From assembly GCA_963514005.1 (NCBI GenBank), contig OY740788.1, positions 9,114,001 to 9,178,000 of the forward strand: a stretch of 64,000 nucleotides of DNA. The letters are read 5' to 3'. Position 1 is the stretch's first letter. Each line of letters begins with the position of its first letter. Shown piece by piece: positions 1,350 through 34,243 of this stretch. A model generated the notes under the pieces. That model had not been told where the DNA came from, searched no databases, and saw only the letters and a list, made by a program, of their open reading frames with translations. The stretch is from Raja brachyura. Its lineage: Eukaryota. The position numbers and the translations under genes are program-made.

Positions 1350-4300
1350 ATAGAAACATAGAAAATAGGTGCAGGGGCCCTTCGAGCAAGCACCGCCATT
1401 CACCAAATGGTGGACGAGGTCTGATTGACCTGGACGATGACACGTTGGCCTGGCTCACATTAACGGAGCTGCAGGTCTAAAAGATACGGCAGAAAAAGAA
1501 GAAGATGGATGATCATCCTCAATCAATAACCTGTGCCTGCCTTCACCCCATATTCCTTGATTTCACTAGCCCCTAGAGCTCTATCTAACTCTCTCTTAAA
1601 TCCATCCAGTGATTTGGCCTCCACTGCCCTCTGTGGCAGGGAATTCCACAAATTCACAACTCTCTGGGTGAAAAAGTTTTTTCCCACCTCAGTCTTAAAT
1701 GGCCTTTCCTTTATTCTAAGACTGTGGCCCCTGGTTCTGGACTCGCCCAACATTGGGAACATTTTTCCTGCATCTAGCTTGTCCAGTCCTTTTATAATTT
1801 TATATGTTTCTATAAGATTGCCCCTCATCAATCTAAACCCCAGTGAATACAAGCCTAGTCTTTTCAATCTTTCCTCATATGACTGTCCCACCATCTCAGG
1901 GATCAATCACGTGAACCGATGCTGCACTGCCTTAATCACAAGGATGTCCTTCCTCAAATTAGGAGACCAAAACTGTACACAATACTCCAGATGTGACCTT
2001 ACCAGAGCCCTATACAACTGCAGAAGAACCTCTTTACTCCTATACTGAAATCCTCTTGTTATGAAGGCTAACATTCCATTAGCTTTCTTCACTGCCTGCT
2101 GTACCTGCACACCAACTTTCAGTGACTGGTGTACAAGCACACCCAGGTCTCGCTGTACTTCCCCCTTACCTAACCTAACCCCATTGAGACAATAATCTGC
2201 CCCCTTGTGTTTGCCGCCAAAGTGGATAACCTCACATTTATCTATATTATACTGTATCTGCCACGCATCTGCCACGCATCTGCCCACTCACTCAACCTGT
2301 CCAGGTCACCCTGCAACCTCCTAACATCCTCTTCACAGTTCACACTGCCACCCAGCTTTGTGTCATCTGCAAACTTGCTAGTGTTGCTCCTAATCCCTCT
2401 TCCAAATCATTAATATATATGGTAAACAGTTGCGGCCCCAACACCGAGCCTTGCGGCACTCCACTCGCCACTACCTGCCATTCTGAAAATGACCCATTCA
2501 CTCCTACTCTTTGCTTCCTGTCTGCCAACTAATTTACTATCCATGTCAACACCCGACCCCCAATACCATGTCCTCTAATTTTAGTCACCAGTCTCCCGTA
2601 CAGGATCTTAACAAAGGCTTTCTGAAAGTCTAGATACACTACATCCACTGGCTCCCCTTCATCCATTTTACTTGTCACATCCTCAAAAAATTCCAGAAGA
2701 TTAGTCAAGCATGATTTCCCTTTCATAAATCCATGTTGACTTGGACTAATCCTTTTACTGCTATCCAAATGCTCCATTATTACCTCTTTAATAATTGACT
2801 CCAGCATCTTTCCCACCGCCGAAGTCAGGCTAACTGGTCTGTAATTCCCCGTTTTCTCTCTCGCTCCTTTCTTGAAAAGTGGGATAACATTAGCTATCCT
2901 CCAATCCACAGGAACTGATCCTGAATCTACTGAACATTGGAAAATGATCACCAATGCGCCCACTATTTCTAGAGCCACCTCGCTGATGCAGACCATCAGG
3001 CCCAGGGGATTCATCATCCTTCAGTCCCATTAGCCTACCCAATACTATTTCTCACCTAATGAAAATTTATTTCAGTTCCTCTTCCCCTCCTTAGATCCTC
3101 TGTCCTCCAGTACATCTGGGAGATTGTTTGTGTCTTCCTTAGTGAAGACAGATCCGAAGTTCAACTCTTCTGCCATTTCCTTATTACCCATAATAATTTC
3201 ACCCGTGTCTGCCTTAACATTTGACTTTTCTACTTTTTTACCCTTAACATATCTGAAGAAGCTTTTACTGTCCTTCTTAATATTCCTGGCCAGCTTCCTC
3301 TCGTACTTCATCTTTTCAGCCCATATTGCCCGTTTTGTTTCCTTCTGTTGTCCTAAGAAAGTTTCCCAATCCTCTGCCTTCCGGCTACTCTTTGCTCTGT
3401 TATACATCTTTTCTTTAGTTTTATTCTATCCCTAACTTCCCTTGTCAGCCACGGTTGTGTCCTACTCCCCTTAGAATCTTTCTTCCTTTTTGGAATGAAA
3501 TGATCCTGCGACTTCTGGATTATGCCCAGAAATTCCTGCCATTGCTGTTCCACCATCATTCCTGCTAGGATCCCTTTCCAGTCTACCTTGGCCAGCTCCT
3601 CTCTCATGGCTTCATAGTCCCCTTTGTTCAACTGCATCACTGACACTTCCGATGTAACCTTCTCCTCAAATTGCAGATTAAAACTAATCAGATTATGATC
3701 ACTACCTCCAAGCGGTTCCTTTACCTCGAGTTCTCTTTATCAAATCTGGTTCATTGGACAACACTAAATCCAGAATTGCCCTTTCTTTGGTCGGCTCCAT
3801 TACAAGCTGCTCTAAGAATCCATCTCGGAGGCATTCTACAAACTATTTTTCTTGGGGTCCTGAACCAACCTGATTTTCCCAGTCTACCTGCATATTGAAA
3901 TCCCCCATCACCACGGTGGCATTACCTTTGTTACATGCCAGTTCTAACTCCTGCTGCAACTTACACCCTACATCCGGGCTTCTATATGGGGGTCTGTAGA
4001 TAACACCAATTAGTGTCTTCTTGCATTTGCAATTCCTCAACTCAATCCAGAGTGACTCTACCTCGTCAGTCCGTATGTCTTCCCTCGCAAGGGATTGAAT
4101 TCCATTCCTCCCGAGAAGAGCTACCCCCCTCCTCTGCCCACCTGCCTGTCCTTTCTATAGGATGTATTACCCTGAATATTAAGTTCCCAGGCCCGATCCT
4201 CCTGCAGCCACGTCTCAGTAATCCCCACAATGTCATATCTACCAACCTGTGACTGAGCCTCAAGCTCATCTACTTTACTTCCTATACTTCCCGCATTCAT

Positions 4301-4480
4301 AAACAATATTTTTAATTCCTTACGCATCTCACCTTTCACATCGATCCCTATTACACTTGTCCATACTCTCCTATCCCTTTGTGAGCTTTCTTTCCCGTTA
4401 ATTCTGGGATCATTAACTATCCCCTTACTCCCTTTTCCTTTAACTCCATCCCATTTGACAACCCCCCCCCCTCCCCCCCC
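1350..4480 (-). mobile_element. CR1 LINE ORF2 (APE endonuclease + RT), broken frame, within the TM1-TM2 intron
   Basis: ORF pieces [53 protein letters not shown]; CR1 3' tail (CTATGTTT). Confidence 0.92.
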
Positions 4481-4616
4481 CCGTTATTGTCACAGATTGC
4501 ATCATCTGTTGGCCGTGGTGTGGTGAGGATTGGAGAATCAGAGAACACAGTGTAGTGAGGAATGGACGGTCACAGTGTGGGGGTCACAAAGTATCTCTGT
4601 CGTTGGTCATCGTTAC

Positions 4617-4756
4617 CTTGACAACGGTGACAAAGGTACTGTAGAGGAAACTGATAATGAACAGGGTGGCGAAGGCAGCAACTGCAGGCACATTGTCATC
4701 TTCATCCAAGTACCCCGGCTCCTCCTTCCCTTCCTCTCCTGTCAAGTCTGTGCCGG
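4617..4756 (-). CDS. IgW: IgW transmembrane exon TM1 (AGTDLTGEEGKEEPGYLDEDDNVPAVAAFATLFIISFLYSTFVTVVK)
   Basis: Not in the ORF track; branch point ACTAAC + pyrimidine tract + GAAG|; acidic spacer then CART motif (F..LF..S..YST.VT..K); donor AAG|GTAAC. Confidence 0.92.
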
Positions 4757-5972
4757 CTTCAGGACAAATGAGAAGGTGAGACAGTTAGTTTGCCGCGGAT
4801 GTTTTGTGAAGATCAACATCATGTGAATAAAATGAAGACAACAGGAGGACAGGAACACAGGAAGCTCGGGTCAGTTCCACCGTTCAATGATATTGTGGAG
4901 ATCTATCACCAGCTCCACTGAGCTGACTTTTCCCCCACATCCATTAACATCTCGTGTAGTCAAACTCTGCAATCTCAGATTTTAAATCACCTTCAGACCT
5001 GGAACCAAATGCTAACTGTGGAAGGCAATTCCAAACTTCCATGAGCCTCTGATAGACACAAAAAGCTGGTGTAACTCAGCGGGACAGGCAGCATCTCTTG
5101 AGAGAAGGAATGGTTGACGCTTCGGGTCGAGATCCTTCTTCAGACGCCATGATCCTCTTCCGTGCAGCATGGCTGCCTCTAACTTTTAGACCCTGTACTT
5201 TGTATAAAGTTGGATTTCCATAGATCAGGGAGATCATTTGTAACCCAGAGAGCACTGTACACAAGTAAAAAATAATTCCTCCTATCTAGTTAGTTTGGTT
5301 TATTGTCACGTGTACCGAGGTACAGTGAAAAGCTTTTGTTGCGTGCTAACCAGTCAGCGGAAAGACAATACATGATTACAAATGAGTAATTTACAGTGGA
5401 TACATACATGATAAGGGAATAACGTTTAGTGCAAGGTAAAACCAATAAAGTCCGATCAAAGATAGTCCGAGGGTCTCCAGTGAGGTAGATAGTAGTTCAG
5501 GGCCGCTCGTTGGTTGTGGTAGGATTATTCAGTTGCCTGATAACAGCTGGGAAGACACTGTCCCTGAATGTGGAGATGTGTAAATAGATCATCCCAGGAT
5601 AATCTATTCTGTTAGCTCCCATTAACTTTGTGAAAACATCAAACAAATCTTCCTCGAGCCTTCTAAATTACAACCTACTCAGCATCATGAAAGTAAGCAT
5701 ACAGGTAGGTACAACAGGCAGTGAAGAAAGTGAATGGCATGTTGGCCTTCCTAACAAGAGGAGTTGAGTATAGGAGCAAAGAGGTCCTGCTGCAGTTGTA
5801 CTGGGCCCTAGTGAGACCACACCCTGAGTATTGTGTGCAGTTTTAGTCACCTAATTTGAGGAAGGGCATTCTTGCTATTGAGGGTGTGCCGCCTAGGTTT
5901 ACAAGGTTAATTCCCAGGATGGTGGGACTGTCATATGCTGAGCGGCTGGGCTTGTATACTCTGGAGTTTAGA

Positions 5973-6512
5973 AGGCCACCAAATTCAAGTGCAGTTTCAT
6001 ACCACTTCAAGCAGGGTGCAAGGCCAAAGAATTCAAGTGCAGTGGTATGAAACTGCACTTGAATTCTTTGGCCTTGCACCCTGCTTGAAGTGGTAGGAAA
6101 CCGCACTTGAATTCGGTGGCCTTGCACCCTGCTTGAAGTGGTAGGAAACCGCACTTGAATTCGGTGGCCTTGCACCCTGCTTGAAGTGGTAGGAAACTGC
6201 ACTTGAATTTGGTGACCTTGCACCCTGCTCAAAGTGGTAAGAAACTGCATTTGAATTTGGCGGCCTTGCACCCTGCTTGAAATGGAATATCAAGGAATAG
6301 CCATGAGTCAACTGCCAGCCCACCAGCCATGAATCAACTGCCAGCACATCAGGCTTGAGGAACTGAGCTGCCACCCCAAGAACCCATACCAGCGCTCCAG
6401 AAAGCCCCTCCACTGGCCACCAATATTAGAATTGGTGGAGAGGAGGAATATTGCGTCGGGGGACCAGCCCTCCCGTGTGAACATGGGACCCAACAGGTCC
6501 CACTTAGTCTAG
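5973..6512 (+). mobile_element. Non-autonomous Helitron 3' part with 48-bp minisatellite
   Basis: Ends in hairpin GGGACC-caaca-GGTCCC, then ACTTAGT-CTAG|T; internal 48-bp tandem repeats. Confidence 0.7.
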
Positions 6513-6526
6513 TATATATATATATA

Positions 6527-8269
6527 CTAGACTAAGTGGGACCAGTTGGGTCCCAGCATCACACGGGAGGGCCGGTCCCCCAACGCAATATTCCACCTCT
6601 CCACCAAATCCAATATTGGTGGCCAGTGGGGGGAGGGGGGGGGGGGGCGGCTATTTTGAGCGCTAGTATGGATGATTTGGGCCGAAGGGACTGGTTTCCA
6701 GAGAACTAATATGGACATTGTGTGCCGAATGGATTCTTGGGCTGGCACCTCAGTCACTCAAGCCTGTTGTGTTGGCAGCTCACTCACTCACGGCTGGTGG
6801 GCTGGCAGTTGACTCACAGCTATTCCTTGAAATTCAATTTCAAGCAGGGTGCAAGACCACCAAATTCAAGTGCCGTTTCAATAGACAATAGACAATAGGT
6901 GCAAGAGTATGCCATTCGACCCTTCGAGTCAGCACCGCCATTAAATCTGATCATGGCTGATTATCCCCATATCCCCTGACTCCGCTATTTTTAAGAGCAC
7001 TATCTAGCTCTCTCTTGAAAGCATCCCGAGAACCTGCCACCACCGCCCTCTGAGGCAGAGAATTCCACAGACTCACCACTCTCTGTGAGAAAAAGTGTTT
7101 CCTCGTCTCCGTTCTAAATGGCTTACTCCTTATTCTTAAACTGTGGCCCCTGGTTCTGGACTTCCCCAACATCGAGAATATGTTTCCTGCCTGTGTCCAA
7201 GCCCTTAACAATGTTTCAATGAGATCCCCTCTCATCCTTCTAAACTCCAGAGTGTACAAGCCCAGCTGCTCAATTCTCTCAGCAAATGACAGTCCCGCCA
7301 TCCCGGGAATTAACCTTGTAAACCTACGCTGCACTCCCTGAATAACAAGAATGTCCTTCCTCAAATTAGGGGACCAAATTCTTACCACTTCAAGCAGGGT
7401 GCAACACCACCAAATTCAAGTGCAGTTTCATACCATTTCAAGCAGGGTGCAAGGCCACTAAAGACAGCGAGTCATGACCTCTCCCTCCTCCATCTTGCAG
7501 CGACTGAGCCACGTCCACACTTCTGGGTTTTATAGTCCCTTCCCTCCCACCAGAAGTGGTGTGGCCTTCATGGCGTGATTGACAGGAGAAAGAATCTCAA
7601 ACTTTTTAAAACACTAATAACTTTTTTTTCATTGATGCGAAAAATCCTCAGCACCTGATGGGCGAAGGGGGACTCTGAGTAAGATGGCCTCAAATCACAG
7701 CCGTACGTGGTAGTTTTGTTTCTAAAATCAATATAAAGCGCAAACAGGAAGTGGTCAAGATTAGACTTTTAATTATATAGAAGGCAAGGCAACTTTAATT
7801 AGGCAAGGCAACTTTAATTAGGCAAGACAGCTTTAGCATTTCCAAACCAAAGGCAACACAGCTTTAGCATTTCCAAACTATATTTTCAAACCACAATAAG
7901 GCCACTGACAGGTCAGTAAAACCACTCACAGTTTAGTAGACATGCGTTTAGTGTTATTCACAGCTCAGACTGAGAGACGTGACCCCCTAGCTCCCCCATC
8001 TTGCAGAGACTGACTGAGGCACTCAACACTTCCGGGTTTTATAGTCCTTCCGGAAGGGGCGTGCCTTCAGGAGGGAGTGTCTCAACATTTTTTAAACACT
8101 AATAACTCTTTTATTTTTTATTGATGGGATTATTTTTATTGTCCTGCGCAGCGGAAGAAGACTGAGCAAGATGGCCAAAAATCACAGCCGTTAAGTGGCA
8201 GTGTTTTTTTCTAAAATCAATGTACAGAACAACAGGAAGTGGTCAAGATCAGACTTTTAGTAATATAGA
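6527..8269 (-). mobile_element. Non-autonomous Helitron (A|TCTATATTACTAAAAG ... hairpin-CTAG|T) interrupted by a CR1 fragment (6882-7380)
   Basis: 5' TC and 3' CTAG termini, AT target, no TSD, subterminal hairpin; second 5'-end copy at ~7781. Confidence 0.78.
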
Positions 8270-8610
8270 TACACAATAAATAAACAGATAAAGTGCAATA
8301 GGCTGTTATTGTTCAGAGTTTGTTTGATGGCCTGATGGCTGTGGGGAAGAAGCTGTTCTTGAACCTGGATGTTCCTGATTTGAAGCTCCTGTATCTTCTT
8401 CCCGATGGCAACGGAGAGATGAGTGTGTGGCCAGGATGGTGTGGGTTTTTGATGATGTTGGCAGCCTTTTTGAGGCAGCAACTGCGATAAATCCCTTCGA
8501 TGGTGGGGAGGTCAGAGCCGATGATGGACTGGGCAGTGGTCACAACTTTCTGCATTCTTTTCCGCTCCTGGACGTTCAAGTTGCCGAACCAAGCCACAAT
8601 GCAACCAGTT
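8270..8610 (-). mobile_element. Rex1/Babar LINE 3' fragment
   Basis: TGCIVAWFGN...IIKNPHHPGH...PSGRRYRS...RFKNSFFP. Confidence 0.8.
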
Positions 8611-9837
8611 ATGTTTAACCAAAAAGTTATGTTTGATATGAATTTGGTCTGGAATCCATTTTCATTCTCAGTTGACGTTCTCTCCCTGGCTAAGTAATGT
8701 CCACCGATGTGCACGAGACACTTGAATAGCAGTGGCTTTCTGGAGAGACATTCCCTTTCCTCAAGAGTACCAACTGCTCAACTAACCACAACATGGTCTT
8801 GTTATTATCAGCACAATATCACATGAGGAGATAATCACATTTGACAGAGTGCAGGAGATGGTTAGACACGCAGATGTACAGGCTCTTTCACCCAGAGTAG
8901 GGCAATCAAGAACCAGAGGACATGGGTTTAAGGATTGGGGGGACAGATTTAATGGGAATCTGAGGGGCAACTTTTTCACACAGAGGGCACTGCGACATGG
9001 AATGTGCTGAGCGAGGAGGTAGTTGAGGCAGAAACTATAGCATTGTTTAAAAGTTATTTGGACAGGTACATGGATGGGACCAATAGTGAAAGGCCTGGAT
9101 AGAGTGGATGTAGAGAGGATGATTCCACTCATGGAAGAGTATAGGACCACAGCCTCAGAATTCCTCTAGGAAGATGAGGAGGAATTTCTTTAGTCACAGG
9201 GTAGTGAATCTGAGGAATTCATTGCCACAGAAGGCTGTGGAGGCCCATTCAATGGGTATTTTTATAGCAGAGATAGATAGATTCTTGATTAGTATTGGTG
9301 TCAGGGGGAGAATGCGATTAGGAAGGAGAGATAAATCAGCCATGATTCAATGGCGGAGTAGACTTGATGGGCCGAATGGCCTAATTCTGCATCTCTCACT
9401 TATGAACATGAGATGATTAGTGATTTGGGCCAAACAAGGGGAGGCGTGACTAGTATCGATCGGGCACCTTGGTTGGCAAAGACAAGCTGAGCTGAAGGGC
9501 CTGTTACCGTACTGTATAAATCTATGACCCATGATCACTCCAATGCCAACGCGCTTGTACCCAGCTCCTTCCACACAATGGACTTTTGATGGACCTCTTT
9601 TCCAGTGTTGACAAACAATTGTACAAGTACAAATACTCGACCCCACTCTTCAAATTAGCAGCAAGACAACTAGTCTGAGATGCCACACACAGAGGGCCCT
9701 CAACAATGAGTGGGTTGACCCTGTGACACTAATGTTGAAGAACAGCAGGCTTGGTCTTCTCAGTGTCCTGGCCACTGAGGTGGTTTGGAATAAACTGAAG
9801 TTGTGAAAGCACAGAAGTATGTTGCATTGTGTCCTAG

Positions 9838-10325
9838 TCCTGGTTGCATCGTGGCCTGGTTCGGCAACTTGAACGTCCAGGAGCGAAAAAGACAACAAAA
9901 AGTTGTGACCATTGCCCAGTCCATCGCCGGCTTTGACCTCCCCACCGTCGGAGGGATCTATCGTAGTCGCCGCCTCAAAAAGGCAGCCAACATCATCAAG
10001 GACCCACACCATCCTGGCCACCCACTCATTTCACCATTGCCATCAGGAAGAAGTTACAGGAGCCTGAATACTGTAACTTCCAGGTCCAGGAACAGCTACT
10101 TCCCCACAGCCATCAGGCTATTAAACACAACAATAAATAAGCTCTGAGCTCTGAACAGCAAAAGACTATATTATTATTTGTTATTTGCACTATTTGTTAT
10201 TTATTGAACTTTTTCTTTTTTTCTCTTCCCCCGTTATGTACGATGTTTACATATTCTGTTGTGCTGCAGCATGTAAGAATTTCAGTGTCCCGTCCGGGAC
10301 ATATGACAATAAAACACTCTTGACT
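9838..10325 (+). mobile_element. Rex1/Babar LINE 3' fragment
   Basis: GCIVAWFGN...DPHHPGH...PSGRSYRS; GACAATAAA tail. Confidence 0.8.
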
Positions 10326-10468
10326 CTTCTTCACCCTAGTTTAGGCCTCTTGGTTATCACTCACTCACTCACACACTGCAACACCTGTCCTTCAGTGCTA
10401 AACTTGCCTGGCCCTATTTTGTGACGGGGCAAAAGATGTGATGATTGGAGTGAATCCCAGCACCGTAC

Positions 10469-10786
10469 CTTGAAAGCTTTTCACTTCCCGGCCGATACTG
10501 GTGTTCGAGGGGGGATGAGACACTGTGCAGCCGAAGACTGAGCCTTTCTTCCAATCCTCTGAACTCACAGTCAGGAAGTGGCTGGCACTGAAAGTCCCCC
10601 CCTGCTCCAGAGCAGTCGGTGTCGCGCTGGTGGTGGAGGAGATCGGGGCTCCGTCTTTCTCCCAAGTGACGTTTATGAGGTCCGGGTAGAAACCAGAGAG
10701 CACACACTCGAGGGTGGATGTGTGGCTGCGCTTGGCCTCTTCGTGAGCTGGAGGCAGCAGTCTGACCTTGGGTCTTTTTGTTTCAA
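10469..10786 (-). CDS. IgW: IgW constant exon C8 (C4 paralog; VETKRPKVRLLPP...LECVLSGFYPD...SFQ)
   Basis: CTGTTCCAG| acceptor, G|GTACG donor, 318 nt like C4; about 73% aa identity to C4 by hand count. Confidence 0.9.
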
Positions 10787-10828
10787 CTGGAACAGAGGAG
10801 CAAAGTAGATGTGAGACCCTCTTCCTCA

Positions 10829-11171
10829 AGGGCCTGTCCCACTTACGCAACTTTTTCAGTGACTGCCCGCACCCGTCATCGGTCGTTACAGGTCGCCGAA
10901 AAATTTCAACATGTTGAAAATTCCGCGGCGACCAGAACAAGGTACGACTCTTTGGGCGACTACTCTCGACCATACAGGCTTCACCCCGCGACATGTCGCC
11001 AGGGTGTCGCCTGTATGGTCGTGAGTCGTCTCCTCAGTCGCCCAAAGAGTCGTAGCGTCTTTCTGGTTGCCGCTGGATTTTCAACATGTTGAAAATTTTC
11101 GCTGACCTGCAACGACCTATGACGGGTGCCGGCAGTCACCGAAAAAGTCGCGTAAAAGTGGGACAGGCCCT
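10829..11171. mobile_element. PIF/Harbinger-like foldback MITE in the C7-C8 intron
   Basis: TIR AGGGCCTGTCCCACT ... AGTGGGACAGGCCCT, 3-bp TSD TCA on both sides, long internal inverted repeat. Confidence 0.8.
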
Positions 11172-11217
11172 TCATGGTAACTAATGTTGGCCATATCATT
11201 GCCGATCTCTCGCCCAC

Positions 11218-11520
11218 CTTTGGCACTTTCTGTCCGTGCAGACACTGGTGAGGATGATGGAGATCGTTGGGCAGAGCACACAACCTCCACCCCGCTGGTC
11301 CATTCCTCCACACTGCTCCAGAGTTTACTGCTCACTCTGTCTTGGGTCCTTTCCCCTCTCGGTTGGCGGGTCACAGCCCCTGTAGTTCTCTCCCTTCCGC
11401 TCACTTGCCAGTGGATTTGGACCTGGCTCAAATCAGCACCCATTACCACGCACACCACAGTCGCAGTCTTGTTGATCCAAATCTCTTCAGTGGAGGGGTT
11501 TTGGATAAAGACAGACAATT
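11218..11520 (-). CDS. IgW: IgW constant exon C7 (C3 paralog; ELSVFIQNPSTEEIWINKTATVVC...)
   Basis: CATCTGCAG| acceptor, G|GTGGG donor, 303 nt, open; about 60% aa identity to C3 by hand alignment. Confidence 0.9.
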
Positions 11521-11624
11521 CTGCAGATGAGAAATAGGAAGCTTACAAACCAGACAAAGTCTGGTGTTATCGTCACCGATCAACTGGACTCTGACGACTT
11601 GCATTCATTTTCCAGACTCACTTT

Positions 11625-12515
11625 ATTATGTGCACAAGGAACAACCTCTCTCTCAATGTCAGCGAAACTAAAGAGATGATCGTGGACTACAGGAGACACC
11701 AGGGAAGTGGACACCTCCCATCCACATCGGTGAGGCTGAGGTTGAAAGGGTCAGCAGCTTCAAGTTCCTCACTGCACACGGACACAATAACAAAGAAAGC
11801 CCGCCAGCGGCTCTTGTTCCTGAGATGACTGAGGAAGTTTGGCATGAACGCCAGCATCCTCACAAACTTCTACAGGTGCACCATGGAGAGCCTGCATCAC
11901 AGTCTGGTACGGGAACTGTTCTGCCCACAGCCGCAAATCACTACAGAGTGTGGTGAAGGCAGCACAGCACATCACTGGCAACTGTTCCTGCGGAAGGTAC
12001 ACAGCATCATCAAGGACCACAGCCACCCAGCACGCACACTGTTCTCCACGAAATGGCAGCGAATTGTGGTTGCAGCCCAGACCATCACACAAACTAACCT
12101 CCCTTCCACTGACTCCATTTACATCTCACGCTGCCTTGGCAAGGCCAGCAGCATAATCAAGGACCGTCGCACCCTGGCCACTCCTTTATCTCCCCTCTCC
12201 CATCAGGCAAAAGGTATAGAAGTGTGAAAACGCACACCTCCAGATTCAGGGACAGTTTCTTCCCAGCTGTTATCAAGCAACTGAACCAACCCCTCACCAA
12301 CTAGAACGCAGTCCTGAGCTATCATCTACCTCACTGGAGACCCTTGGACTATGTTTAATCGGACATTACCTTGCACAAAACGTTATTCCCTTTATCATGT
12401 ATCTGTATACTGTGGATGGCTTGATTGTAATTACATAGTCTTTCCGCTGACTGGTTAGCATGCAACAAAAAGCATTTTCACTGTACCTCAGTCTACGTGA
12501 CAATAAACTAAACCA
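11625..12515 (+). mobile_element. Rex1-like LINE fragments plus SINE-type 3' tail
   Basis: NNLSLNVSETKEMIVDYR, KKARQRLLFLR, NFYRCT; GTGACAATAAACTAAAC tail. Confidence 0.7.
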
Positions 12516-13449
12516 AACAAGCCTCGGCCCACACAATGGGCATTGCATCCCCCACCCTAGACCATTACTCCTTCCACCATCGACACTTCACGCTGCCTCA
12601 GGAAAGCAGCCAACATCATCGAGGAACCCTCATCCCAGTCATTGTCTCTACTCCCCTCTCCAGAAGATATAAGAAGCTTGAAACTACGTAGCAGCAGATT
12701 CAAGAACAGATTTACTTAAGCACCGACTGGCAGATGTTTAATTGTAACATTGGAATAGAAGAGTTACCAATGATGAGCTGTCTCTTTTATTCAACATCAT
12801 TCGTACACCCCCGCTGAGGACAGAGACTCCTCAAACAACCATCCCCCTTGTTAGACACAGATGTCATGTGTGGCTCAGGGGTGAGCAATGTCATCTCATG
12901 AAAGCTGCTGTCTTCGGGATGAGGCTTTAAGGAGGTGCTTCTCAGGTAGATGTCAGTAACGCCACGACATGACCACGAAAGTTCTGCTCGGAGCCCTGAA
13001 CTAATATTTATCCTGGAACCAAACAGGTAAACTCAGATGGGCTGTGAGAGAGCTGGGAAGGGGAAAGAGGGAGAAAACAAGGACTACCTGACGCAGGAGA
13101 TCTGGCCAGATTTGGTTTGCCGTGTGGGAGCTTGCATCAGGTACATTGTCACAGCTGGGCTGGGAAAGACCATGGTCCAATGAGTTCACCTTGTGTCACC
13201 CTGACGGCCGCATGGCACAGTGATAATGGAGTTAACGACCACAATCAATCTCTGTCTTCAACTGGTCCAGGCGTGGGTGTGAGAACACCCAAGGGTGGAA
13301 GGTTTTGGACACATTGATCCAACAACACCTATTTCTCCCAGAATGTGCTTCTCCTAGAATGTGCACACCTCACATCCCAAGCTACCCATGTACTGCCACC
13401 CAAAACACACCAGTCACAGACACGCACACAAAACCTTTTTCACATCACA

Positions 13450-13455
13450 TTTATT
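13450..13455 (-). terminator. Polyadenylation signal, long secretory form
   Basis: AATAAA about 285 nt after the stop, followed by a GT-rich downstream element (GGTTTTGTGTGCGTGTCTGTG). Confidence 0.7.
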
Positions 13456-13739
13456 AAACTTGTATTGGTACATTGACACATACATAGATGTAATACCTCG
13501 TGTGTTCCCATACAGGGTTAAAATCTGTTCAAGCATGGAAGAAAACGTTCTGTAAATGTATCCAGAAGCTCAGACATTTGTGGTGAATCATGGCTGTGGC
13601 TTAATTACTTTCTCGTGTGGAATTATGTTTTTAATGATTTACACATTTTGATGATGTATTAGGGAACTAACCCAACATCCTCTGGGTCAGTTAATAAATC
13701 CAGAAATGAACAAAACAAGTGTTTGAGAAATGAATCATG

Positions 13740-14125
13740 TTACACACAAGATTTAAAGCTATCCGTCAGAACAAGGGAGACATTGACCAGGGTGGGTTTG
13801 CTGTGAGATTTATTGATGCTTCTGAATAGGCTGGTTGTGATGGACCCGTGTCCCACAACACAGGAGAAGGTGGTGCCACTGTTCCACTCCTCTGGCGAAA
13901 CCTTCAACTGACTGGTCATGGTGTTCCACCCATTCCTGGTGTCCTTGGTCACGGGCTGGTTCACGATCCCTGTCTTCAGAAGGGTATCGTTGGCCATCCA
14001 GGCCACATAGATGTCTGCAGGAGAGAATCTGGTGACCAGGCACGTCAAGGTGGCCGTCTCATCCGTCTCCACCTCATCCAATGAAGGGGGAAGGAGGTAG
14101 ACTTGAGGACGACTCTCAACTCCAT
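13740..14125 (-). CDS. IgW: IgW constant exon C6 with secretory tailpiece (...KPTLVNVSLVLTDSFKSCV*)
   Basis: CTGTTCCCAG| acceptor; C-mu4-like domain (PQVYLLPP, LTCLV, FSCVVGH); tailpiece with NVS sequon and penultimate Cys. Confidence 0.95.
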
Positions 14126-14320
14126 CTGGGAACAGAGAGAACCTGAGTTAGACTGCATCTGTCGGTAATTCTGTACTTACCCAATACATTCCAATCTTAT
14201 ACTGACATTAACACCGTTTACATCCTGAGGGACCTCAGTTCACCTGAAACTAAAGGCTTTTCCTTTCTGCTCATTGTAGGGATGTGTGGAATAGAAATCA
14301 GGCCTCTGGTGCATTTTACA

Positions 14321-15082
14321 GGACGGCATGGTGGCACAGCGGTAGAATTGCTGCCTGACAATGCCAGAGACATGGGTTTGATCCCGACTATGGGTGGTGC
14401 CTGTATGGAGTTTGTACGTGACCGCGTGGGTTTTCTCCGGGTGCTCAGGTTTCCTCCCACACTCCAAAAATGAACATGTTCTCTGTATGGCGGGACTGTC
14501 ATATGCTGAGAGAATGGAGCGTCTGGGCTTGTATATTCTGGAATTTAGAAGGATGAGAGGGAATCTGATTGAAACATAAGATTATTAAGGGTTTGGACAC
14601 GTTAGAGGCAGGAAACGTGTTCCCGATGTTCAGGGAGTCCAGAACCAGGGGCCACAGTTTAAGAATAAGGGGTAAGCCATTTTGAACAGAGATGAGGAAA
14701 CACTTTTTCACACAGAGAGTTGTGAGTCTGTAGAACTCTCTGCCTCAGAGCGCGGCGGAGGCCAATTCTCTGGATACTTTCAAGAGAGAGCTAGATAGGG
14801 CTCTTAAAGATAGCGGAGTCAGGGGATATGGGGAGAAGGCAGGATCGGGGTACTGATTGGGGATGATCAGCCACGATCACATTGAATGGCGGTGCTTGCT
14901 CGCAGGGCCGAATGGCCTACTCCTGCACCTATTGTCTATTGTCTATTGTTTGTAGGCTAATTGTCTTGGTTTAATTGTAAATTGTCCTTGGTGTGTGCTG
15001 GGTAGTGTTAGTACGCGGGGATCGCTGGTCGGCCCGGACTTGATGGGCCGAAGGGCGCTGTATCTCCAAACTAAACTGAACT
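14321..15082 (+). mobile_element. tRNA-derived V-SINE (HE1-like) split by a CR1 3' fragment (~14480-14948)
   Basis: A/B-box-like head GGTGGCACAGCGG...GGTTTGATCCC, V-domain GGAGTTTG...GGTTTCCTCCCACA, resumes after the CR1 tail. Confidence 0.75.
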
Positions 15083-15534
15083 ATAGCTTCCAGTGAGTTT
15101 AAACTGGTTAGTTAATCAACAGGAACCACTGAATGCTGAGACTCTACAGAAAGTGGAACTCAGTCCTTGGACCTGCCTTGTCCTGCGCTGTCTGTTCCAT
15201 CTCCCCTTCTGCTTAAATGATCTGCTGGTCTTTGCCTCAAGTTCCCTGCCCTTCCAGTCCTGACTCAGTCTGTATCTCGCCTTGTGAAAGCTGCGAATCC
15301 CTCTCCCTCTCCCTTGACTCTCTGCAGCTCACGCTGTGGGAACAAGTGTGGTTTTGGACGAGGCTGTCGTGGTGACTTGGGATTTTAATGATGTGGTTAA
15401 TCAACTGAGTTTAATCTTCTTTTGCTCCCTCACACTCTCTGACCAGCTGTAAGTCCCAATATCCATTAGATATCCACTGGAGATCAGAAAAATCCAAAGG
15501 AATCTGAGAAAAACTATCAAATTCTTAACCGGAT

Positions 15535-16752
15535 TGATGAAGGGGAGCCAGTGGATGTAGTGTGTCTAGACTTTCAGAAAGCCTTTGATAAGGTCCCGCA
15601 CGGGGGACTGGTGACTAAAATTAGAGCACATGGTATTGGGTAGGGTGTTGACGTGGATAGAAAATTGGATGGCAGACCGGAAGCAAAGAGTAGGAGTGAA
15701 CGGGTCCTTTTCAGAATGGCAGGCAGTGGCGAGTGGAGTGCCGCAAGGCTCGGTGTTGGGGCCGCAACTGTTTACCATATATATTAATGATTTGGAAGAA
15801 GGAATTAGGAGCAACACTAGCAAGTTTGCGGATGACACAAATCTGGATGGCAGTGTGAACAGTGAAGAGTATGTTAGGAGGTTGCAAGGTGTCCTGGACA
15901 GGTTGAGTAAGTGGGCAGATGTGTGGCAGATGCAGTACAATATAGATAAATGCGAGGTTATCGACTTTGGTGGCAAAAACAAGGGGGCAGATTATTATCT
16001 CAATGGGGTTAGGTTAGGTAAGGGGGAAGTACGGCGAGACCTGGGTGTACTTGTACACCGGTCACTGAAAGTTGGCGTGCAGGTACAGCAGGCAGTGAAG
16101 AAAGCTAATGGAATGTTGGCCTTCATAACAAGAGGATTTCAGTATAGGAGTAGAGAAGTTCTTCTGTATAGGGCTCTGGTAAGACCATATCTGGACAGTT
16201 TTGGTCTCCTAATTTGTGGAAGGACATCCTTGTGATTGAGGCAGTGCAGCGTAGGTTCACGAGATTGATCCCTGGGATGGCGGGAATGTCAAATAAGGAA
16301 AGATTGAAAAGACCAGGCATGTATTCACTGGAGATTAGAAGGATGAGGGGGGTGGGGCATCTTATAGAAACATATAAAATTATAAAAGGACTGGACAAGC
16401 TAGATGCAGGAAAAATGTTCCCAATGTTGGGCGAGTCCAGAACCAGGGGCCACAGACTTAGAATAAAGGGGAGGCCATTTAAGACTGAGGTGAGAAAAAA
16501 CTTTCATCCAGAGAGTTGTGAACTTGTGGAATTCCCTGCCACAGAGGGCAGTGGAGGCCAAATCACTGGATGAATTTAAGATAGAGTTAGATAGAGCTCT
16601 AGGGTCTAGTGGAATCAAGGGATATTAGGAGAAGGCAGACACGGGTTATTGATTGGGGACGATCAGCCATGATCACAATGAATGGCGGTGCTGGCTCAAA
16701 GGGCTGAATGGCCTCCTCCTGCACCTATTTACTATGTTTCTATGTTTCTATG
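15535..16752 (+). mobile_element. CR1 LINE 3' portion (RT)
   Basis: [16 protein letters not shown]; CR1 3' UTR and (CTATGTTT)n tail. Confidence 0.9.
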
Positions 16753-17145
16753 AACAGGTGAGGTAGAGGAAAAATGCTTCAGATATTGGGGAATCCAGGC
16801 CAGGACAATCTGAGGTGAAGGTGTGTAGGTGTGAGAGGGGGAGAAATGCCTTCACACAGGCAGTGGTGAACCTGGGCATTCTCTGCCACAGACAGTACTG
16901 AAGCCCAATTATTAGATATATGCAAGAATGAGTTGGATCCAGTTCTTAGGATAAAGGGATCAGGGGATATGGAGAGAATGCAGGAAGCGAGTACTGAATA
17001 TGGATGATCAGCCGTGCTCATATTGAATGTCTGTGCAGGATTGAAGGGCCGAATGGCCTGCGCCTGCAATTATTTTCTATGCTGGATGTGATAAGTCTGT
17101 CCATTTGCTCAGATCAGACTCGCACCAACCTCTGTCCACACGTAC

Positions 17146-17466
17146 CTGTCGGCTTCTCCAAGGATCTGCTCTCCGGTGTTGGCAAACTCTTGTCCTCCAC
17201 CACACAGGTGTACAGAGCCCCACTCTCCCACTCTGCAGCGGGGACCGTCAGTCCGCTGGTGATGGTGTCCGCACCTCCGATCCTCTCTGCACCACGAGTT
17301 GTCACCCCGTCTTCTCTCTTCATTCCATTCACTTGCCAGGTTACCCTGAATCCCTCTAAATCACTGTGAACCACCTTGCACAGAATGGTGGCTGTCTTGT
17401 TGATCCAGATCTCTTCGAAGGAAGGTTTGCTTAAAGTGACCGAGGGTCGGGTATCTGAACATTCAT
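17146..17466 (-). CDS. IgW: IgW constant exon C5 (DECSDTRPSVTLSKPSFEEIWINKTATILC...YTCVVEDKSLPTP...)
   Basis: TTCTCCCAG| acceptor, G|GTACG donor, 321 nt. Confidence 0.92.
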
Positions 17467-18134
17467 CTGGGAGAAATCACAATTATTATGTCATCGTTCC
17501 CTGATGGAGCAGCTTGCCACTGAAGTATTTTGTGCTCATCTCCACCGAATGATATGCCGGTCCCATCAACATCAGGGAGATTTATCCACCTTGGTGTCGG
17601 AATGAAGCTTCCTATTGATCCCACAAGGAAACCTTGCTAAAGAATGTGAATTAACAAGTTGACTTTTACATTAGTTGACAGTTTTGTGATCACTGAACCT
17701 GTTACCAGCTATTTACTGAAACAAATGTATAAAATTCCCTCTGAGGAGAGTCAAATCGAGCTAATGTTTGAGGTAAAAATGTGCAGTTCCGTTTAGTTTA
17801 TTGTTATGTGTAGCGAGGTGCAGTGAAATGCTTTTGTTGCGTGCTAACCAGTCAGCGGAAAGTTCTTCACTTTATATTATAAAATAGAAGCAGTGGCATT
17901 ATTTTATTTAGTCGCGAGGGGTCCGGAGTAGGATGAAGAAAGGTCTCGACCCGAAACCTCACCTCCCCATGTCCTCCAGGGATGCTGCCCGACCGGCTGA
18001 GTTACTCCAGCACTTTGTGTCCTTTCATTTAGTCACAACTGTTTAAAAGCAGTTTGGACCCATGAGGTGTAACTAAACTCTCCTGCTGCTTTGTCACAAT
18101 GTTGTGTCTTGCATCCGGCCTGTCCCAGAGGCTG

Positions 18135-18220
18135 CTACACATTGCCCAGACTGGCTGTTGCCACGCTGGGGCAGGGAGAGAGCTGCTCTGCTGGACACTC
18201 TGTCACAGCTGAGGCACCCG
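18135..18220 (-). CDS. Candidate second secretory tail exon after C4 (AGASAVTECPAEQLSPCPSVATASLGNV*)
   Basis: Pyrimidine-rich acceptor CTTTCCCTCTGCCTTTGTACTCAATGCCAG|, phase 1, 2 Cys, TAG; AATAAA at 17903-17908; no transcript evidence. Confidence 0.4.
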
Positions 18221-18463
18221 CTGGCATTGAGTACAAAGGCAGAGGGAAAGTCCGCTTTGAAGAAGAGTATCGTGGATCTCCACCGTCTGGCCTGTCGACT
18301 GGCTTGGATTGCCCTCAAGTTACTAAAGCAATGTCAAATATACAATTATGTCTGTGGCCACACTCACTTACAAGCCCACAACAGGACTGCACCCGTGTTA
18401 CAGTGCTGCCCATGTGTGGCACAGTTTACAATGTGGAGAATGGAATGAATCCCAGGAGCCTAC

Positions 18464-18781
18464 CTTGGATGTTCTTCGCATCCTTCGTGATGATGGTGTT
18501 GGAGGCACAATGATGCACTGTACAATTGAAGCGTGAGCCAGACTTCCAATCCTCGGCACTCATGGTCAGGAAGTGGCTGGCACTGAAAGTGCCCCCCTGC
18601 TCCAGGGCAGTTGGTGCAGCGCTGGTGTTGTTGGAGATCAGGGCACCGTCTTTACTCCAAGTGACGTTGATGAGGTCTGGGTAGAATCCAGAGACCACAC
18701 ACTCCAGGGTGACCTTGTGGCTACGCTCGGTCTCTTCGTGTGCTGGAAGCAGCAGTCTGACTGCAGGCTTTTTTGGCTCAA
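18464..18781 (-). CDS. IgW: IgW constant exon C4 (VEPKKPAVRLLLP...LECVVSGFYPD...FNCTVHH...NIQ)
   Basis: CTGTTCCAG| acceptor, G|GTAGG donor, 318 nt. Confidence 0.92.
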
Positions 18782-19325
18782 CTGGAACAGAGGAAAATAA
18801 ATGTTGAACTCTCTCATAGAGTCATAGAGTGATACAGTTTGGAAACAGGACCTTCAGCCCAACTTGCCCACCCGGCCAACATGTCCCAGCTCCATTAGTC
18901 TCACCTGCCGTATCTGGTCCACATCCCTCCAAACCTGTCCCTGTCTGTTTTTCTAATGTTAGGATAGTCCCTGCCTCAACTACCTCCTCTGGCAGCTTGT
19001 TTCATACATCACCACCCTTTGCGTGAAAATGTTACCCCTCAGATTCCTATTAAATCTTTCCCCCTTCACCTTAAACCCATGTCCTCTGGTACTCAATTCA
19101 CCTACTCTGGGCAAGAGACTCAGTGCATCTATCAATCTATTTCTCTCATGATTTTATACACCTCAATAAGATATTCCCTCATCCTCCTATGCTCCAAGGA
19201 ATAGAGTCCCAGCCCACTCAACCTCTCCCTATAGCTCTCTAGCCCTGGCAACATCCTTGTAAATCCTCTCTGTACCCCCTCTCTCTCTCTCTGTCACGGC
19301 CATTTAATCACTGATCAGTGCCCAC

Positions 19326-19622
19326 CTATGTTATGGTTGGCCCGCGCTGACACTGGTGAGGATGATGGAGGTCGTCGGGCGGAGCACACAAACTCCACCC
19401 CGCTGGTCCACTCCTCCACACTGGTCCGCAGTTCACTGATCATTGGGTCTCGGGTGCCTTCATGGGTACGGGTCATAACTCCTTCGCTTCTCTCCTTTCC
19501 TCCCACCTTCCAGGAGAGATGGACCTGGCTCGGATCACTACAGATCACTGAACACACCAGCGTAGCAGTCTTGTTGATCCAAATCTCTTCCATGCCGGGA
19601 GTTTGAATGAAGACGGACAATA
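19326..19622 (-). CDS. IgW: IgW constant exon C3 (VLSVFIQTPGMEEIWINKTATLVC...EEWTSGVEFVC...)
   Basis: CCACAG| acceptor, G|GTGGG donor, 297 nt, open frame, C1-set motifs. Confidence 0.92.
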
Positions 19623-19677
19623 CTGTGGATCAGAAGTGGAAAAGTTCAGAATTTTAGTTGAGACTCATCTGTACCAA

Positions 19678-19860
19678 AGGGCCTGCCCCACTTACAGGAC
19701 ATGTTGAAAATCCAGCGGCGACTCACGACCATACAGGCTTCTCCCCGCGACATGTCGTCAGGGTGTCGCCTGTATGGCCGTGAGTGGTCTCATCAGTCGC
19801 CCAGAGTCGTAACGTCTTTCTGGTCGCCGAAAAATATTGCGTAAGTGGCTCAGGCTCTTT
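19678..19860. mobile_element. Degenerate copy of the Harbinger-like MITE just 5' of exon C3
   Basis: AGGGCCTGCCCCACTTAC ... GTAAGTGGCTCAGGCTCT; shares the internal CCCCGCGACATGTCG core with 10829-11171. Confidence 0.7.
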
Positions 19861-21559
19861 ATGAAAAGCCGGGGCAGAAATCCAAACAGGTGTCTTATAA
19901 AAGAACTTTAACATGTTTATGTCATCACATAAAAGACTGATCAATGGCAGATCAAAGTATACACTGGTTAGATTTATTGCAAACAGAATAGCAGAAAAAC
20001 TCGTATTAAATAGCAGGTTGGGTGTTTTGACTGAAAAAACAGAACAAAGGAGCCGTCAACTGGGATTTGATTCTCTTTCCCATCACCATGATCAGCTGGT
20101 ACATTACAGGGGCACAATTTGATATGTGCTTTGCTTGGAACCCCTGCAGCATCGATTAGTAATACTGAGCAACATGAATGAGAAAAGCTGCTCTTCTCCC
20201 TGTGGGGCCAAGCCTGGGATTCCCTCAGTTTAAGAATGTCACATGCTGATATCGCAGTCTTACTCTGACCATGTGTCTCACCATCTCTGAAACCTTCACC
20301 ACAAACACAACCTTCAGTAAAGGTGGCATTCTTCCAACTCTGGGCACTCGTAAGCCTGCACTCCTTTCACCTTTGTACCACTTGCTGTGTCACATTGCAG
20401 TGTTGCTCACAAGCACCAAAGCTCGCTCAGCAGATACCCCCCCCCCCCCCCCCCCCCCCACCATCACTCCTCCTTGATACGAAGACTGACGGTAAATGTC
20501 AATCCAGAAGTTGTCGATCTGGTGACATGAGCTCAAAATTCCAACCCGTGATCTGGGAATTTCAATTTATAAATGCATTCTGACGTAAAACACGTCCGTT
20601 GGTGGTGACGCATGTCGATAGTTCACTGCCGCACTTCACGGAAGGGAATGTGTCATCATATCTGTTCTGGCCAGTATGCAACTCCACGCCTGTTGCAAAA
20701 TGGCTGCTGGCTAGTGTCAGTTTAGTGTGACTGTGCTCTAGTGAAGACCTTGAGGCATTTCAGTAATTGATAGAAACTATCTGAAATAAATTAGTGGCTG
20801 ACTCTCCAGCGACAGCAGAGCAAATCATAAATGGTTAGAAGTATCATGGTCCCCCTCCTGCTGCAGATTGGGATGAAATTCTGCATTAGATGTATTTTCC
20901 CATTTCACTTCAGAATCATTGGGCGAGGAAGAGAATGATTTATTCATTCATTGCCCCCGACTGACCTGCACTGGCACTTGTCTTCTGAAGCAGCATCATG
21001 CATCTAGTTCCACTCAGCTCACTCTCGTGTGTGCACTGTTTACACACTCAGTCACTTGTGCCACATGAGCTGTTTTTGCTCTCAAACACTTATTGTGGAG
21101 GGTGATTACATTTGTGTCAGAATTGAAACTTTCAGTGAGCCTGGAGATCAAAGCCTTCAGCTGCATAGAAAGCGAGTCAAAGGAAGGGTCTCAACCTGAA
21201 ACGTTGGTTATTTCATTTGCTCCATAGATGCTGCCTCACCCGCTGAGTTTCTACAGCATTTTTGTCTACCTTTGATTTTCCAGCATCTGCAGTTCCTTCT
21301 TAAACAAGAGTCATATACACTGTGTCTGTCTGACAGAGGACTTAACATTTGTTAATGTACGATGTTGTCTATTTCACAATCCCTCCTTCTTTGAGCAAAA
21401 TGGCGAGCAAATTCCTTGTTGCAGTTGTTGCAGTGTCATCAGAAATTTGTAAGCCTCGTGTAACAGTGTACAATGTTCTTGCTTTGTGGATCTTGTTTTA
21501 ATCAGCAATGTGATATTGTTAAACATGTGGTTTTGCAAGATGCTCAATCCCGTCCCATA

Positions 21560-22108
21560 TCAGTACAGTTCTGGTCTCCAAATCTGAGGAAGGTCATTAT
21601 TGCCATAGAGGGAGTGCAGAGAAGGTTCACCAGACTGATTCCTGGGATGTCAGGACTGTCTTATGAACAAAGACTGCATAGACTCGGTTTATACTCTCTG
21701 GAATTTAGGAGATTGAGAAGCGATCTTATAGAAACTTACAAAATTCTTAAGGGGTTGTACAGGCTAGATGCAGGAAGATTGTTCCCGATGTTGGGGAGGT
21801 CCAGGACAAGGGGTCACAGCTTAAGGATAAGGGGGAAATCCTTTAGGACCGAGATGAGAAGGACTTTTTTCACACAGAGAGTGGTGGGTCTCTGGAACTC
21901 TCTGCCACAGAGGGTAGTTGAGGCCAGTTCATTGGCTATATTTAAGAGGGAGTTAGATGTGGCCCTTGTAGCTAAGGGGATCAGAGGGTATGGAGAGAAG
22001 GCAGGTACGGGATACTGAGTTGGATGATCAGCCATGATCATATTGAATGGCGGTGCATGCTCGAAGGGCCGAATGGCCTACTCCTGCACCTAATTTCTAT
22101 GTTTCTAT
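21560..22108 (+). mobile_element. CR1 LINE 3' fragment
   Basis: VQFWSPNLRK...RTRGHSL...GYGEKAGTGY plus CR1 tail. Confidence 0.9.
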
Positions 22109-22768: not shown

Positions 22769-22896
22769 TTACTTTATTTCACACTTTCCTGCCCAACAAT
22801 GATACTGCCGGGTAGAACCATCTGTGAATGTCACATTGAGATTACTCTGGTAGAAGAACTTCGGCAGACACTTCGAACAGCCGGGACATTCTCCAC
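22769..22896 (-). CDS. IgW: Cys-rich secretory tail exon of short IgW (GGECPGCSKCLPKFFYQSNLNVTFTDGSTRQYHCWAGKCEIK*)
   Basis: Acceptor TCTTCCATTTCCAG|, phase 1 in frame with C2, 5 Cys, stop TAA; fits the known Cys-rich tail of two-C-domain IgX/IgW. Confidence 0.88.
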
Positions 22897-23504: not shown

Positions 23505-23804
23505 CCCCTTGGTATCTCATGTTGATCCTGCCGTTGAAGTTGGAAGGTGCGTGAGTCACTTCACAACTATATTCCTGTTTGTTGGTCCATTCCTCCACAG
23601 GCAACAGCAGGTAAGCAACTGTTTCAAATCCACCGTTAGTTCCCGGGGTGGACGGGAGAACGCTGCCCGCTTGAATAATTCCAGATTTTTTCCAGGAAAC
23701 TTTAATATTGTCCGGGGAGAATCCAGATATCATGCAGCCCAGCACAGCAGTTGTTTGATTGTGGAGACCCTCCGGGGATGGAACAAGGGGGATGAGCTGT
23801 GGAG
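23505..23804 (-). CDS. IgW: IgW constant exon C2 (APQLIPLVPS...LGCMISGFSPD...YSCEVTH...RYQG)
   Basis: TTACAG| acceptor, G|GTGAGT donor, 300 nt; C1-set motifs. Confidence 0.93.
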
Positions 23805-24768: not shown

Positions 24769-25077
24769 CTTGAGTCTTCGGGAACTTCTCTATAACCAGG
24801 TTGTCCGGCTTGTATCCTGCCTTGCAGTAGTAGACGTCGTTCCTGTTCCAATTTGCCACAGGGACTCGCAGCAAGCTGCTCATTGTGTACTTGTTGTTTT
24901 GTCCCAACACTGGTGGGTACATTGTGATTCCAGTGGTGATGTCCCTACTGCTGGTGGACCATGTCTGACTGATGATCTGAGGCTGGTAGTCCTTGACCAG
25001 ACAGAGGATGCTGATCTCTTGGCCAGATTCTGTGTTGCAGGAAGAGGTGATGTGGACTGAAGGCAAGGCCTCAACCT
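24769..25077 (-). CDS. IgW: IgW constant exon C1 (EVEALPSVHITSSC...ILCLVKDY...W...YYCKAG...KTQ)
   Basis: TTTCAG| acceptor, G|GTTAG donor, 309 nt; C1-set Cys/Trp/Cys; early extra Cys (likely light-chain bond). Confidence 0.93.
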
Positions 25078-33015: not shown

Positions 33016-33342
33016 CCACTCGCCCTCCACATCCAATAATCTCAGCAAAGTGTCAACGTGAACTTTGCCCGGACCAGGAGCAGCCGCTTCCTGCATTTCC
33101 ATCCCAATCTCCGTCCTTGTCTCAACCTCTGGTGTGAATAAAAGAGGCATTTTTGCCGTCTGCTGCCACCGGCTCTGGCCGCCCCTCACAAACACAATCG
33201 CCTCCTTTCGGGCTTTTAACCGGCCAGAAATGGAATTTCTTCCCCGCAGTGCGAGCCAGGCTTCAGGGATTTGACTCTGGCAAGCAGCAATGCACAATGG
33301 GTGGAGGCAGACTGCGCTGCGGACGCTCATTTGTCGGGGGGC

Positions 33343-33407
33343 AGTTTTGGTTCAGCTCTCCGCTGCCGTGGGCCAGTATCACGGTGATTCACCGCCGCTC
33401 ACAAACT
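33343..33407 (-). other. D segment (ATACTGGCC, 33371-33379) flanked by two 12-bp-spacer RSSs (D2 type)
   Basis: Minus strand: AGTTTGTGA-12nt-CACCGTG [ATACTGGCC] CACGGCA-12nt-ACCAAAACT; lies midway between V and J. Confidence 0.88.
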
Positions 33408-33740
33408 GCGCTGCCACATCCAGCCCGAAATCCACCGGTGGCCAGAGTGGGCAGCGGCTTAATTAAAGCCCCATCCATCTGTGTCCGTGTGTCCCACACA
33501 GGAGCGTCCAGTCTCGGCCATTGCAGCCCTGGAGTGGACAGGAGATAACCCACCGCGACTGTCACCGTGCCTCGACCCACAGCGGCTCCTCGCTGCTTGT
33601 GTCCCCACATCTCCAGTGGAACTTGTTCCCTGTGCCAGATGATGCACACGGGATCTGGTTTATATCCACGGGTCCCGGGGAAAGGCGGCGGCGGGGGCAG
33701 CAGCGCCCAGAGACGCTAGTTAAAGCGTTTGGCTGCGGCA

Positions 33741-33778: not shown

Positions 33779-34083
33779 CCACCCAAGTCTCGCACAGTAA
33801 TAAGTGGCCGTGTCGCTCAGAGTCAGGTCGTTCATTTGGAGATAGACGTTGCTGCTGTCCTTCGAAACCTCGGATCGGCCGCTTACGGCAGGCGCGTAAA
33901 ATTTGTCACCATCACCCTCTATCTCCGCTACCCACTCCAGCCCTTTCCCGGAGACCTGTTTCAGCCAGGTCATGTCGTTGCGGCTGAGGTCCAACCCGCT
34001 GGTTGCACAGGTCAGTTTGAGGGACCCTCCGGGCTTTGCCACCGCGGTCGAGGTCTGATTCAGCACGACCGCGGATCGAACGC
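33779..34083 (-). CDS. IGHV: IgW VH exon (GVRSAVVLNQ...LTC...W LKQ...DTATYYCAR-LGW), probably pre-joined to D1
   Basis: Acceptor TTTTATTGGCAG|; Ig V-set hallmarks (LTC, W36, GKGLEWV, DTATYYCAR); no stops; followed directly by CACAGTG; AVVLNQ N-terminus is typical of skate IgX/IgW V as I recall it. Confidence 0.95.
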
Positions 34084-34197: not shown

Positions 34198-34243
34198 CTG
34201 GCAGACAGGACAGAAGGAGACAGAGATAAGCAGCGACCCCCAT
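34198..34243 (-). CDS. IGHV: IgW heavy chain leader exon (MGVAAYLCLLLSCLP-G)
   Basis: ATG at 34243; 46-nt hydrophobic signal-peptide exon ending CCAG|GTGGGT (phase 1); 114-nt intron to the V exon. Confidence 0.92.

Follow-up and report, generated by a model that had tools for sequence, protein, structure and literature searches.

Introduction

Most antibody genes make a membrane form that differs from the secreted one in its tail or is a shortened version of it. For IgM and IgNAR, the switch between the two forms depends on the choice of a polyA site, which competes with splicing to the transmembrane (TM) exons. In IgM, a donor inside the last C exon feeds TM. As for IgW, nurse-shark clusters are said to carry the tailpiece exon as their 3'-most C exon; this does not hold for the skate cluster analysed here, in which two more C exons, C7 and C8, lie 3' of it.

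According to the available passages of PMC4279169 and PMC5192425, IgW occurs in TM forms of either two or four C domains and in several secreted forms, which arise by splicing. The shark loci described there consist of a V-D-J-C minicluster with 6-8 C exons, with a short Cys-rich secretory form past C2 and a long form ending in C6 plus tailpiece, and their TM forms omit C5-C6. The skate cluster resembles them in this organization, and its proposed membrane form would likewise omit C5-C6. However, neither a C7-type domain nor a post-tailpiece C exon was found in the retrieved shark sequences, whereas the skate has a separate pair there. A precedent is provided by coelacanth IgW1, in which, as given in the review passage, seven secreted-IgW exons come ahead of four tandem Cw3-Cw4-Cw5 duplicates and, after these, the TM exons (PMC5192425). 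The skate cluster similarly has duplicated C exons between the secretory end and TM, but the batoids have one or two pairs instead of four triplets and form a separate lineage. In lungfish, IgW1 and IgW2 derive from one gene and comprise either the first seven domains or the first five plus the last two (10.1101/2022.05.20.492783). A duplicated terminal exon pair is thus used alternatively there as well, although the preprint passage does not tie the choice to the membrane versus the secreted form. Channel catfish IgD, as outlined in the review passage, also uses different constant exons for its membrane and secreted forms; there, two separate genes are involved instead of a single transcript (PMC5192425). 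A literature search covering sources other than the primary skate and shark IgW papers gave no account of post-tailpiece C exons in a skate or ray, and the available passages of PMC12227049, PMC6795676 and PMC13007054 contain nothing on such exons.

Organization of the skate IgW cluster

The window, that is, the whole 64-kb stretch of skate DNA analysed here, contains one immunoglobulin heavy-chain cluster, which lies on the minus strand and has the exon order V-D-J-C1-C2-Sec(short)-C3-C4-C5-C6/tailpiece-polyA-C7-C8-TM1 (Table 1). As in elasmobranch IgW, one V, D segments, J and the C exons are gathered in a single minicluster, six C domains end with a canonical tailpiece, a Cys-rich short secretory exon follows C2, and the TM exon is of the IgW type. 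Compared domain by domain, C1-C6 match skate proteins at 78-99%. The short secretory exon is 71% identical to the end of stingray model P0046, named IgW short secretory form, and TM1 is 87% identical to sawfish model P0048, named IgW transmembrane form. From these matches we class the cluster as a skate-type IgW (IgX) heavy-chain cluster. Within the 64 kb, a relaxed tblastn search gave no additional C, V or secretory exon, and an Atlas search returned generic Ig constant clusters only. TM2 was not found within the window and probably lies beyond its end. TM1 itself has two in-frame acceptors 18 nt apart (4738 and 4756), of which the Rhinoraja model takes the upstream one, 4756.

Table 1. Features of the IgW cluster, in positions of the window
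Feature	Position	Strand	Remarks
Leader exon of IgW V gene	34198..34243	-	ATG, 15 hydrophobic codons, GT donor
VH exon, unrearranged	33779..34083	-	V domain open; RSS at 33778, heptamer/22/nonamer
D region, approximate, two D-like segments	33340..33610	-	one 12-spacer RSS, at 33380; remaining nonamers degenerate
JH segment	32934..32976	-	WGxG motif, RSS at 32977, GT donor
C1 exon	24769..25077	-	
C2 exon	23505..23804	-	joined to C3 in RNA contig X1 record 6
Short secretory exon, Cys-rich, IgW-short type	22769..22896	-	AATAAA at 22778
C3 exon	19326..19622	-	extra Cys four residues past B-strand Cys
C4 exon	18464..18781	-	likely secreted/membrane fork point, judged from Mobula isoform models
C5 exon	17146..17466	-	junction with C6 in contigs X1 record 3, X6 record 18
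C6 exon + secretory tailpiece + stop	13740..14125	-	without GT donor at domain/tailpiece border
AATAAA then GT-rich tract	13450..13455	-	putative polyA signal of long secreted form
C7 exon, C3 paralogue	11218..11520	-	303 nt; batoid-wide clade without extra Cys
C8 exon, C4 paralogue	10469..10786	-	318 nt
TM1 exon	4617..4756	-	second possible acceptor at 4738

The recombination signals of V and J are near consensus. Those flanking the D segments, the V-side ones included, look partly degenerate, with only the one at 33380 scoring well in a relaxed scan, and the cluster may therefore rearrange poorly. Upstream of V (36245-63755) there is no other Ig segment; judged by eye, long open frames in this part resemble fragments of LINE reverse transcriptase and endonuclease, with one other reverse-transcriptase-like frame at 63045-63755. 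Two tandem repeats lie in introns: five copies of a 48-nt unit at 6041-6285 (C8-TM1), and about 340 nt of G-rich, AGCT-containing 20/53-nt units at 27371-27712 (J-C1), the latter superficially resembling a switch region.

C7 and C8 are intact duplicates of C3 and C4

Both C7 and C8 are located 3' of C6 with its tailpiece and AATAAA (13455), and 5' of TM1. C7 shares 61 of 98 residues (62%) and 227 of 297 nt (76%) with C3 (blastn E = 3e-58), and C8 shares 76 of 105 residues (72%) and 250 of 318 nt (79%) with C4 (E = 5e-87), while the remaining pairs of C exons show 19-38% amino-acid identity. C4 and C8 are equal in length, and the intron starts of C7/C8 are homologous to those of C3/C4. The original prediction, which had placed two intact C exons behind the secretory end and its polyA signal and before TM1, was borne out on each of these points, including the shared length of 318 nt.

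The frames of both exons are open, divisible by 3, bounded by AG/GT and in phase 1. Their splice sites are as good as those of C3/C4, with 14 of 17 polypyrimidine and 7 of 9 donor positions matching the consensus, and both domains score above the Pfam C1-set cut-off. The comparison of substitution rates suggested with the prediction, in which C3/C4 were set against C7/C8 over 203 aligned codons (Nei-Gojobori), gave dS 0.47, dN 0.23 and dN/dS 0.48, with a bootstrap range of 0.32-0.73 and no value of 1 or more in 1000 replicates. In neutral simulations at half the dS, both frames and all splice dinucleotides survived in only 16 of 5000 runs. The figures reveal purifying selection on the C7/C8 sequence and say nothing about the site at which it operates. 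Taken with the quality of the splice sites, the dN/dS value and the simulations rule out that C7 and C8 are pseudo-exons. That C7-C8-TM1 is the remnant of a second cluster was also ruled out, given that a second V, C1, C2 or tailpiece is missing from the window. A 117-nt repeat element occurs in the C7-C8 intron (10956-11072) and in the C2-C3 intron (19715-19829); the copies are 90% identical and represent independent insertions outside the duplication of C3/C4 into C7/C8.

The layout is conserved in batoids

The same exon order is present in other species, as the prediction had proposed to check: Rhinoraja model P0051 reads C1-C2-C3-C4-C5-C6-tail-C7-C8-TM, and in sawfish model P0002 the tail is separated from TM by two C7/C8-type pairs. 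The tailpiece is read through in both, so these models report exon order, not splicing or a real mRNA. Against P0051, the window shows 92% identity in C7 and 87% in C8, and 79% in C3 and 87% in C4. When 75 distinct C3-type domains were placed in a tree (99 columns, 8 identical rows dropped), the C7 of the window fell into a clade of 18 rows with a support of 100/97, comprising skate, electric ray, sawfish and manta, which represent four batoid orders, and no shark row. As part of our main reading, the duplication is probably older than the divergence of skates, electric rays, sawfish and stingray relatives. Given that the C7 clade is nested within batoids, the layout likely arose independently of that in the coelacanth.

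Sequence comparison also revealed a residue that marks the clade. A Cys four residues past the B-strand Cys (codon 27 of C3 in the window, around 19542) is absent from all 18 C7-clade domains versus present in 52 of the 55 other C3-type domains. It occurs in 37 of the 40 other batoid domains, one of the three misses being an incomplete row, and in all 15 shark IgW domains, and is absent from two IgNAR rows. For C8 the picture is narrower: the C8 domains of the window and of Rhinoraja group together (97/92) apart from skate C4 (100/100), with no batoid-wide C8 clade in the C4/C8-type tree.

In sharks, none of the nine IgW TM sequences retrieved contains a C7-type domain; these are models, and the genomes could still carry one. 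Two TM proteins that grouped in the C3-type tree raised the idea that long shark TM forms possess private exons of their own. This was ruled out, as a pair within a secreted catshark model matches TM protein P0039 at 93-94%, and in all six TM models tested (of the nine) the whole part before TM occurs verbatim in an isoform containing C5.

Across the family, domains of the C7 type are not confined to membrane chains. Among 14 secreted batoid sequences, two (Rhinoraja P0023 and sawfish P0012) carry C7-type pairs upstream of C5-C6, and such pairs occur three times before C5 in sawfish P0002. The upstream C7/C8 copy of Rhinoraja is 99%/97% identical to its post-tail copy, and the pre-tail and post-tail copies of sawfish are intermixed in both the C3-type and the C4-type tree. 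Copying between the two positions could help to keep the post-tail pair intact. These observations would also fit a different interpretation, in which the pair is a little-used spare that is kept intact by copying or conversion from the upstream C7/C8-type exons of other clusters, used there in secreted chains, and in which, as in sharks, C2 or C4 supplies TM1. Models P0056, P0005 and P0049, which reach TM without C7, fit such a supply. The dN/dS value does not separate this interpretation from our main reading, but the post-tail position is conserved in two skates and sawfish, the splice sites of C7/C8 are strong, and in manta models C7/C8 occur only next to TM. We consider a spare pair quite improbable.

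Exon usage in membrane transcripts

In place of the GT donor that would feed TM in IgM, C6 has GC ahead of the tailpiece, so a membrane transcript most likely departs from an earlier exon; splicing of C6 onto C7 is unlikely for the same reason. IgNAR differs from the skate cluster in this respect, as model P0041 keeps the last domain beside TM. C7 and C8 lie past the polyA signal with no secretory exon behind them, and are hence usable only through a bypass of the C6 end. Past C8, neither a tailpiece-like nor a Cys-rich secretory exon was found within the window, which leaves TM1 as the sole evident destination. Stingray P0046 shows a Cys-rich short secretory tail after a C4-type domain, and the window is without such a second exon.

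The possibility that C7/C8 end a further secreted form was considered at this point. Reading through into the intron past C8 gives an open tail of 23 codons, with an AATAAA at 10205 as candidate polyA signal, and two Narcine models finish in an unrelated tail past C8. However, the 23-residue tail has no Cys, no secretory exon of either type follows, and the AATAAA falls in a repeat-rich bin; with 40 AATAAA/ATTAAA hexamers in 25 kb, one past C8 is expected by chance. We regard this form as very unlikely.

Our main reading, to which we assign a probability of about 0.6, is that C7 and C8, as intact duplicates of C3 and C4 behind the secretory end, likely take the place of C5-C6-tailpiece and form the final two domains of the membrane chain. 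Cutting at the C6 polyA site would produce the long secreted chain V-C1-C2-C3-C4-C5-C6-tail. Once this site is bypassed, the C4 donor would skip C5-C6 to reach the C7 acceptor and C8 would join TM1, resulting in V-C1-C2-C3-C4-C7-C8-TM. The mutually exclusive cassettes would then be C5-C6 and C7-C8, with C3/C4 common to both forms. Joins of C2 or C4 directly to TM, and of C2 to C7, also keep the frame, and such shorter membrane forms may occur alongside.

The main reading is supported by gene models from other batoids. We classified 43 batoid sequences, mostly predicted models, of which 19 end in TM; 13 of these end C7-C8-TM, and the six without C7 comprise three TM-only fragments, one C2-TM and two C4-type-TM. 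In Mobula birostris, C7/C8 stand directly before TM in 10 of 11 TM models and C7 appears in none of the three secreted models. Three TM/secreted pairs of this species are identical for 1170 aa and then split after a C4-type domain, one branch continuing with C7 and the other with C5. These isoforms are predicted gene models, and judged by accession runs the 10 manta models apparently stem from about three loci, nearly identical, in a single species. C7 is also placed behind a C4-type domain in M. hypostoma P0065 and in Narcine P0030 and P0074. Given these models, the best reading of the skate cluster is V-C1-C2-C3-C4 followed by either C5-C6-tail or C7-C8-TM.

The original prediction had instead proposed V-C1-C2-C7-C8-TM as the receptor chain, with C7/C8 and C3/C4 as the mutually exclusive cassettes. 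All C exons are in phase 1, so that the C2-C7 join is in frame just as the C4-C7 join is, and the product would retain the four C domains of the long TM form (in the available passage of PMC4279169). Skipping of a pair is seen in models, as two manta isoforms (P0061 and P0062) omit the last C3/C4-type pair on their way into C7, and P0039 joins C2 to a pair that is 93-94% like the last pair of the three-pair catshark model. Against this, C2-C7-C8-TM occurs in none of the 43 batoid sequences, mostly predicted models that leave room for a minor isoform, and each of the 11 spliced Mobula models with C7 retains four or five pairs upstream of it, the manta isoforms forking after these pairs. The route would also demand a skip of 12.0 kb, compared with 6.9 kb from C4 over C5-C6; C8 to TM1 spans 5.7 kb. 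We therefore find this receptor rather unlikely as the main form, and C5-C6 is, from the sequences compared, more likely than C3-C4 to be the exclusive partner of C7-C8. What is supported of the prediction is a membrane-only use of the window's copy; C3/C4 as the alternative cassette is not. Such membrane-only use of this copy, based on the anatomy and on the gene models of other batoids, is likely when the main reading and the C2-to-C7 route are taken together.

RNA reads and protein searches

Four of 24 RNA runs were aligned to positions 3851-23850, and the resulting tables are dominated by intronic repeats. In contigs of related runs, C2 is joined to C3 and C5 to C6, as expected of the long secreted chain. 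One contig, record 11 of run X2, agrees with C7 in 161 of 166 bases and ends exactly at the acceptor at 11520, with 68 nt unplaced. A spliced C7 would be expected to look like this, and the contig could derive from another cluster. Among the joints listed for the four repeat-swamped runs there is no C4-C7, C2-C7 or C8-TM1 junction, and the joints listed are repeat artefacts. The stranded depth in the C7 bin is 3.09 versus 1.77, figures inseparable from repeat reads. A protein search returned no short C7-containing proteins, and the 12 and 3 proteins obtained with TM1 did not include a skate junction fragment.

Implications

The C7/C8 layout is real and conserved. As a variant of IgW processing it has a coelacanth precedent, and seen alongside IgW1 of that species it suggests more than one origin of such a layout in the IgW/D lineage. 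With a conserved exon pair set aside for the receptor, the constant domains of receptor and antibody could evolve separately, with no class switching. Going further, we tentatively propose, with somewhat less than even confidence, that batoids evolved a receptor-only IgW module, in which splicing swaps C5-C6-tailpiece for C7-C8 and the pair has been kept since the batoid ancestor, with C7 minus the Cys. The B-cell receptor would then equal the antibody in length and differ in its membrane-proximal domains, which might be specialised for assembly of the signalling complex over effector binding. This bears on the question of the role of IgW/IgD, as IgW B-cell receptors could be labelled with C7/C8-specific probes and the secreted antibody with C5/C6 probes.

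For ray IgW genes, automatic annotation is unreliable, given tailpiece read-through and names such as titin-like. Batoid IgW models P0001-P0005 and P0065 (sawfish and manta rays) contain up to seven tandem C3/C4-type pairs in 1074-1791 aa; some of the long models are annotated as titin-like, and they extend far beyond the 2-8 C domains given in the available passages of reviews.
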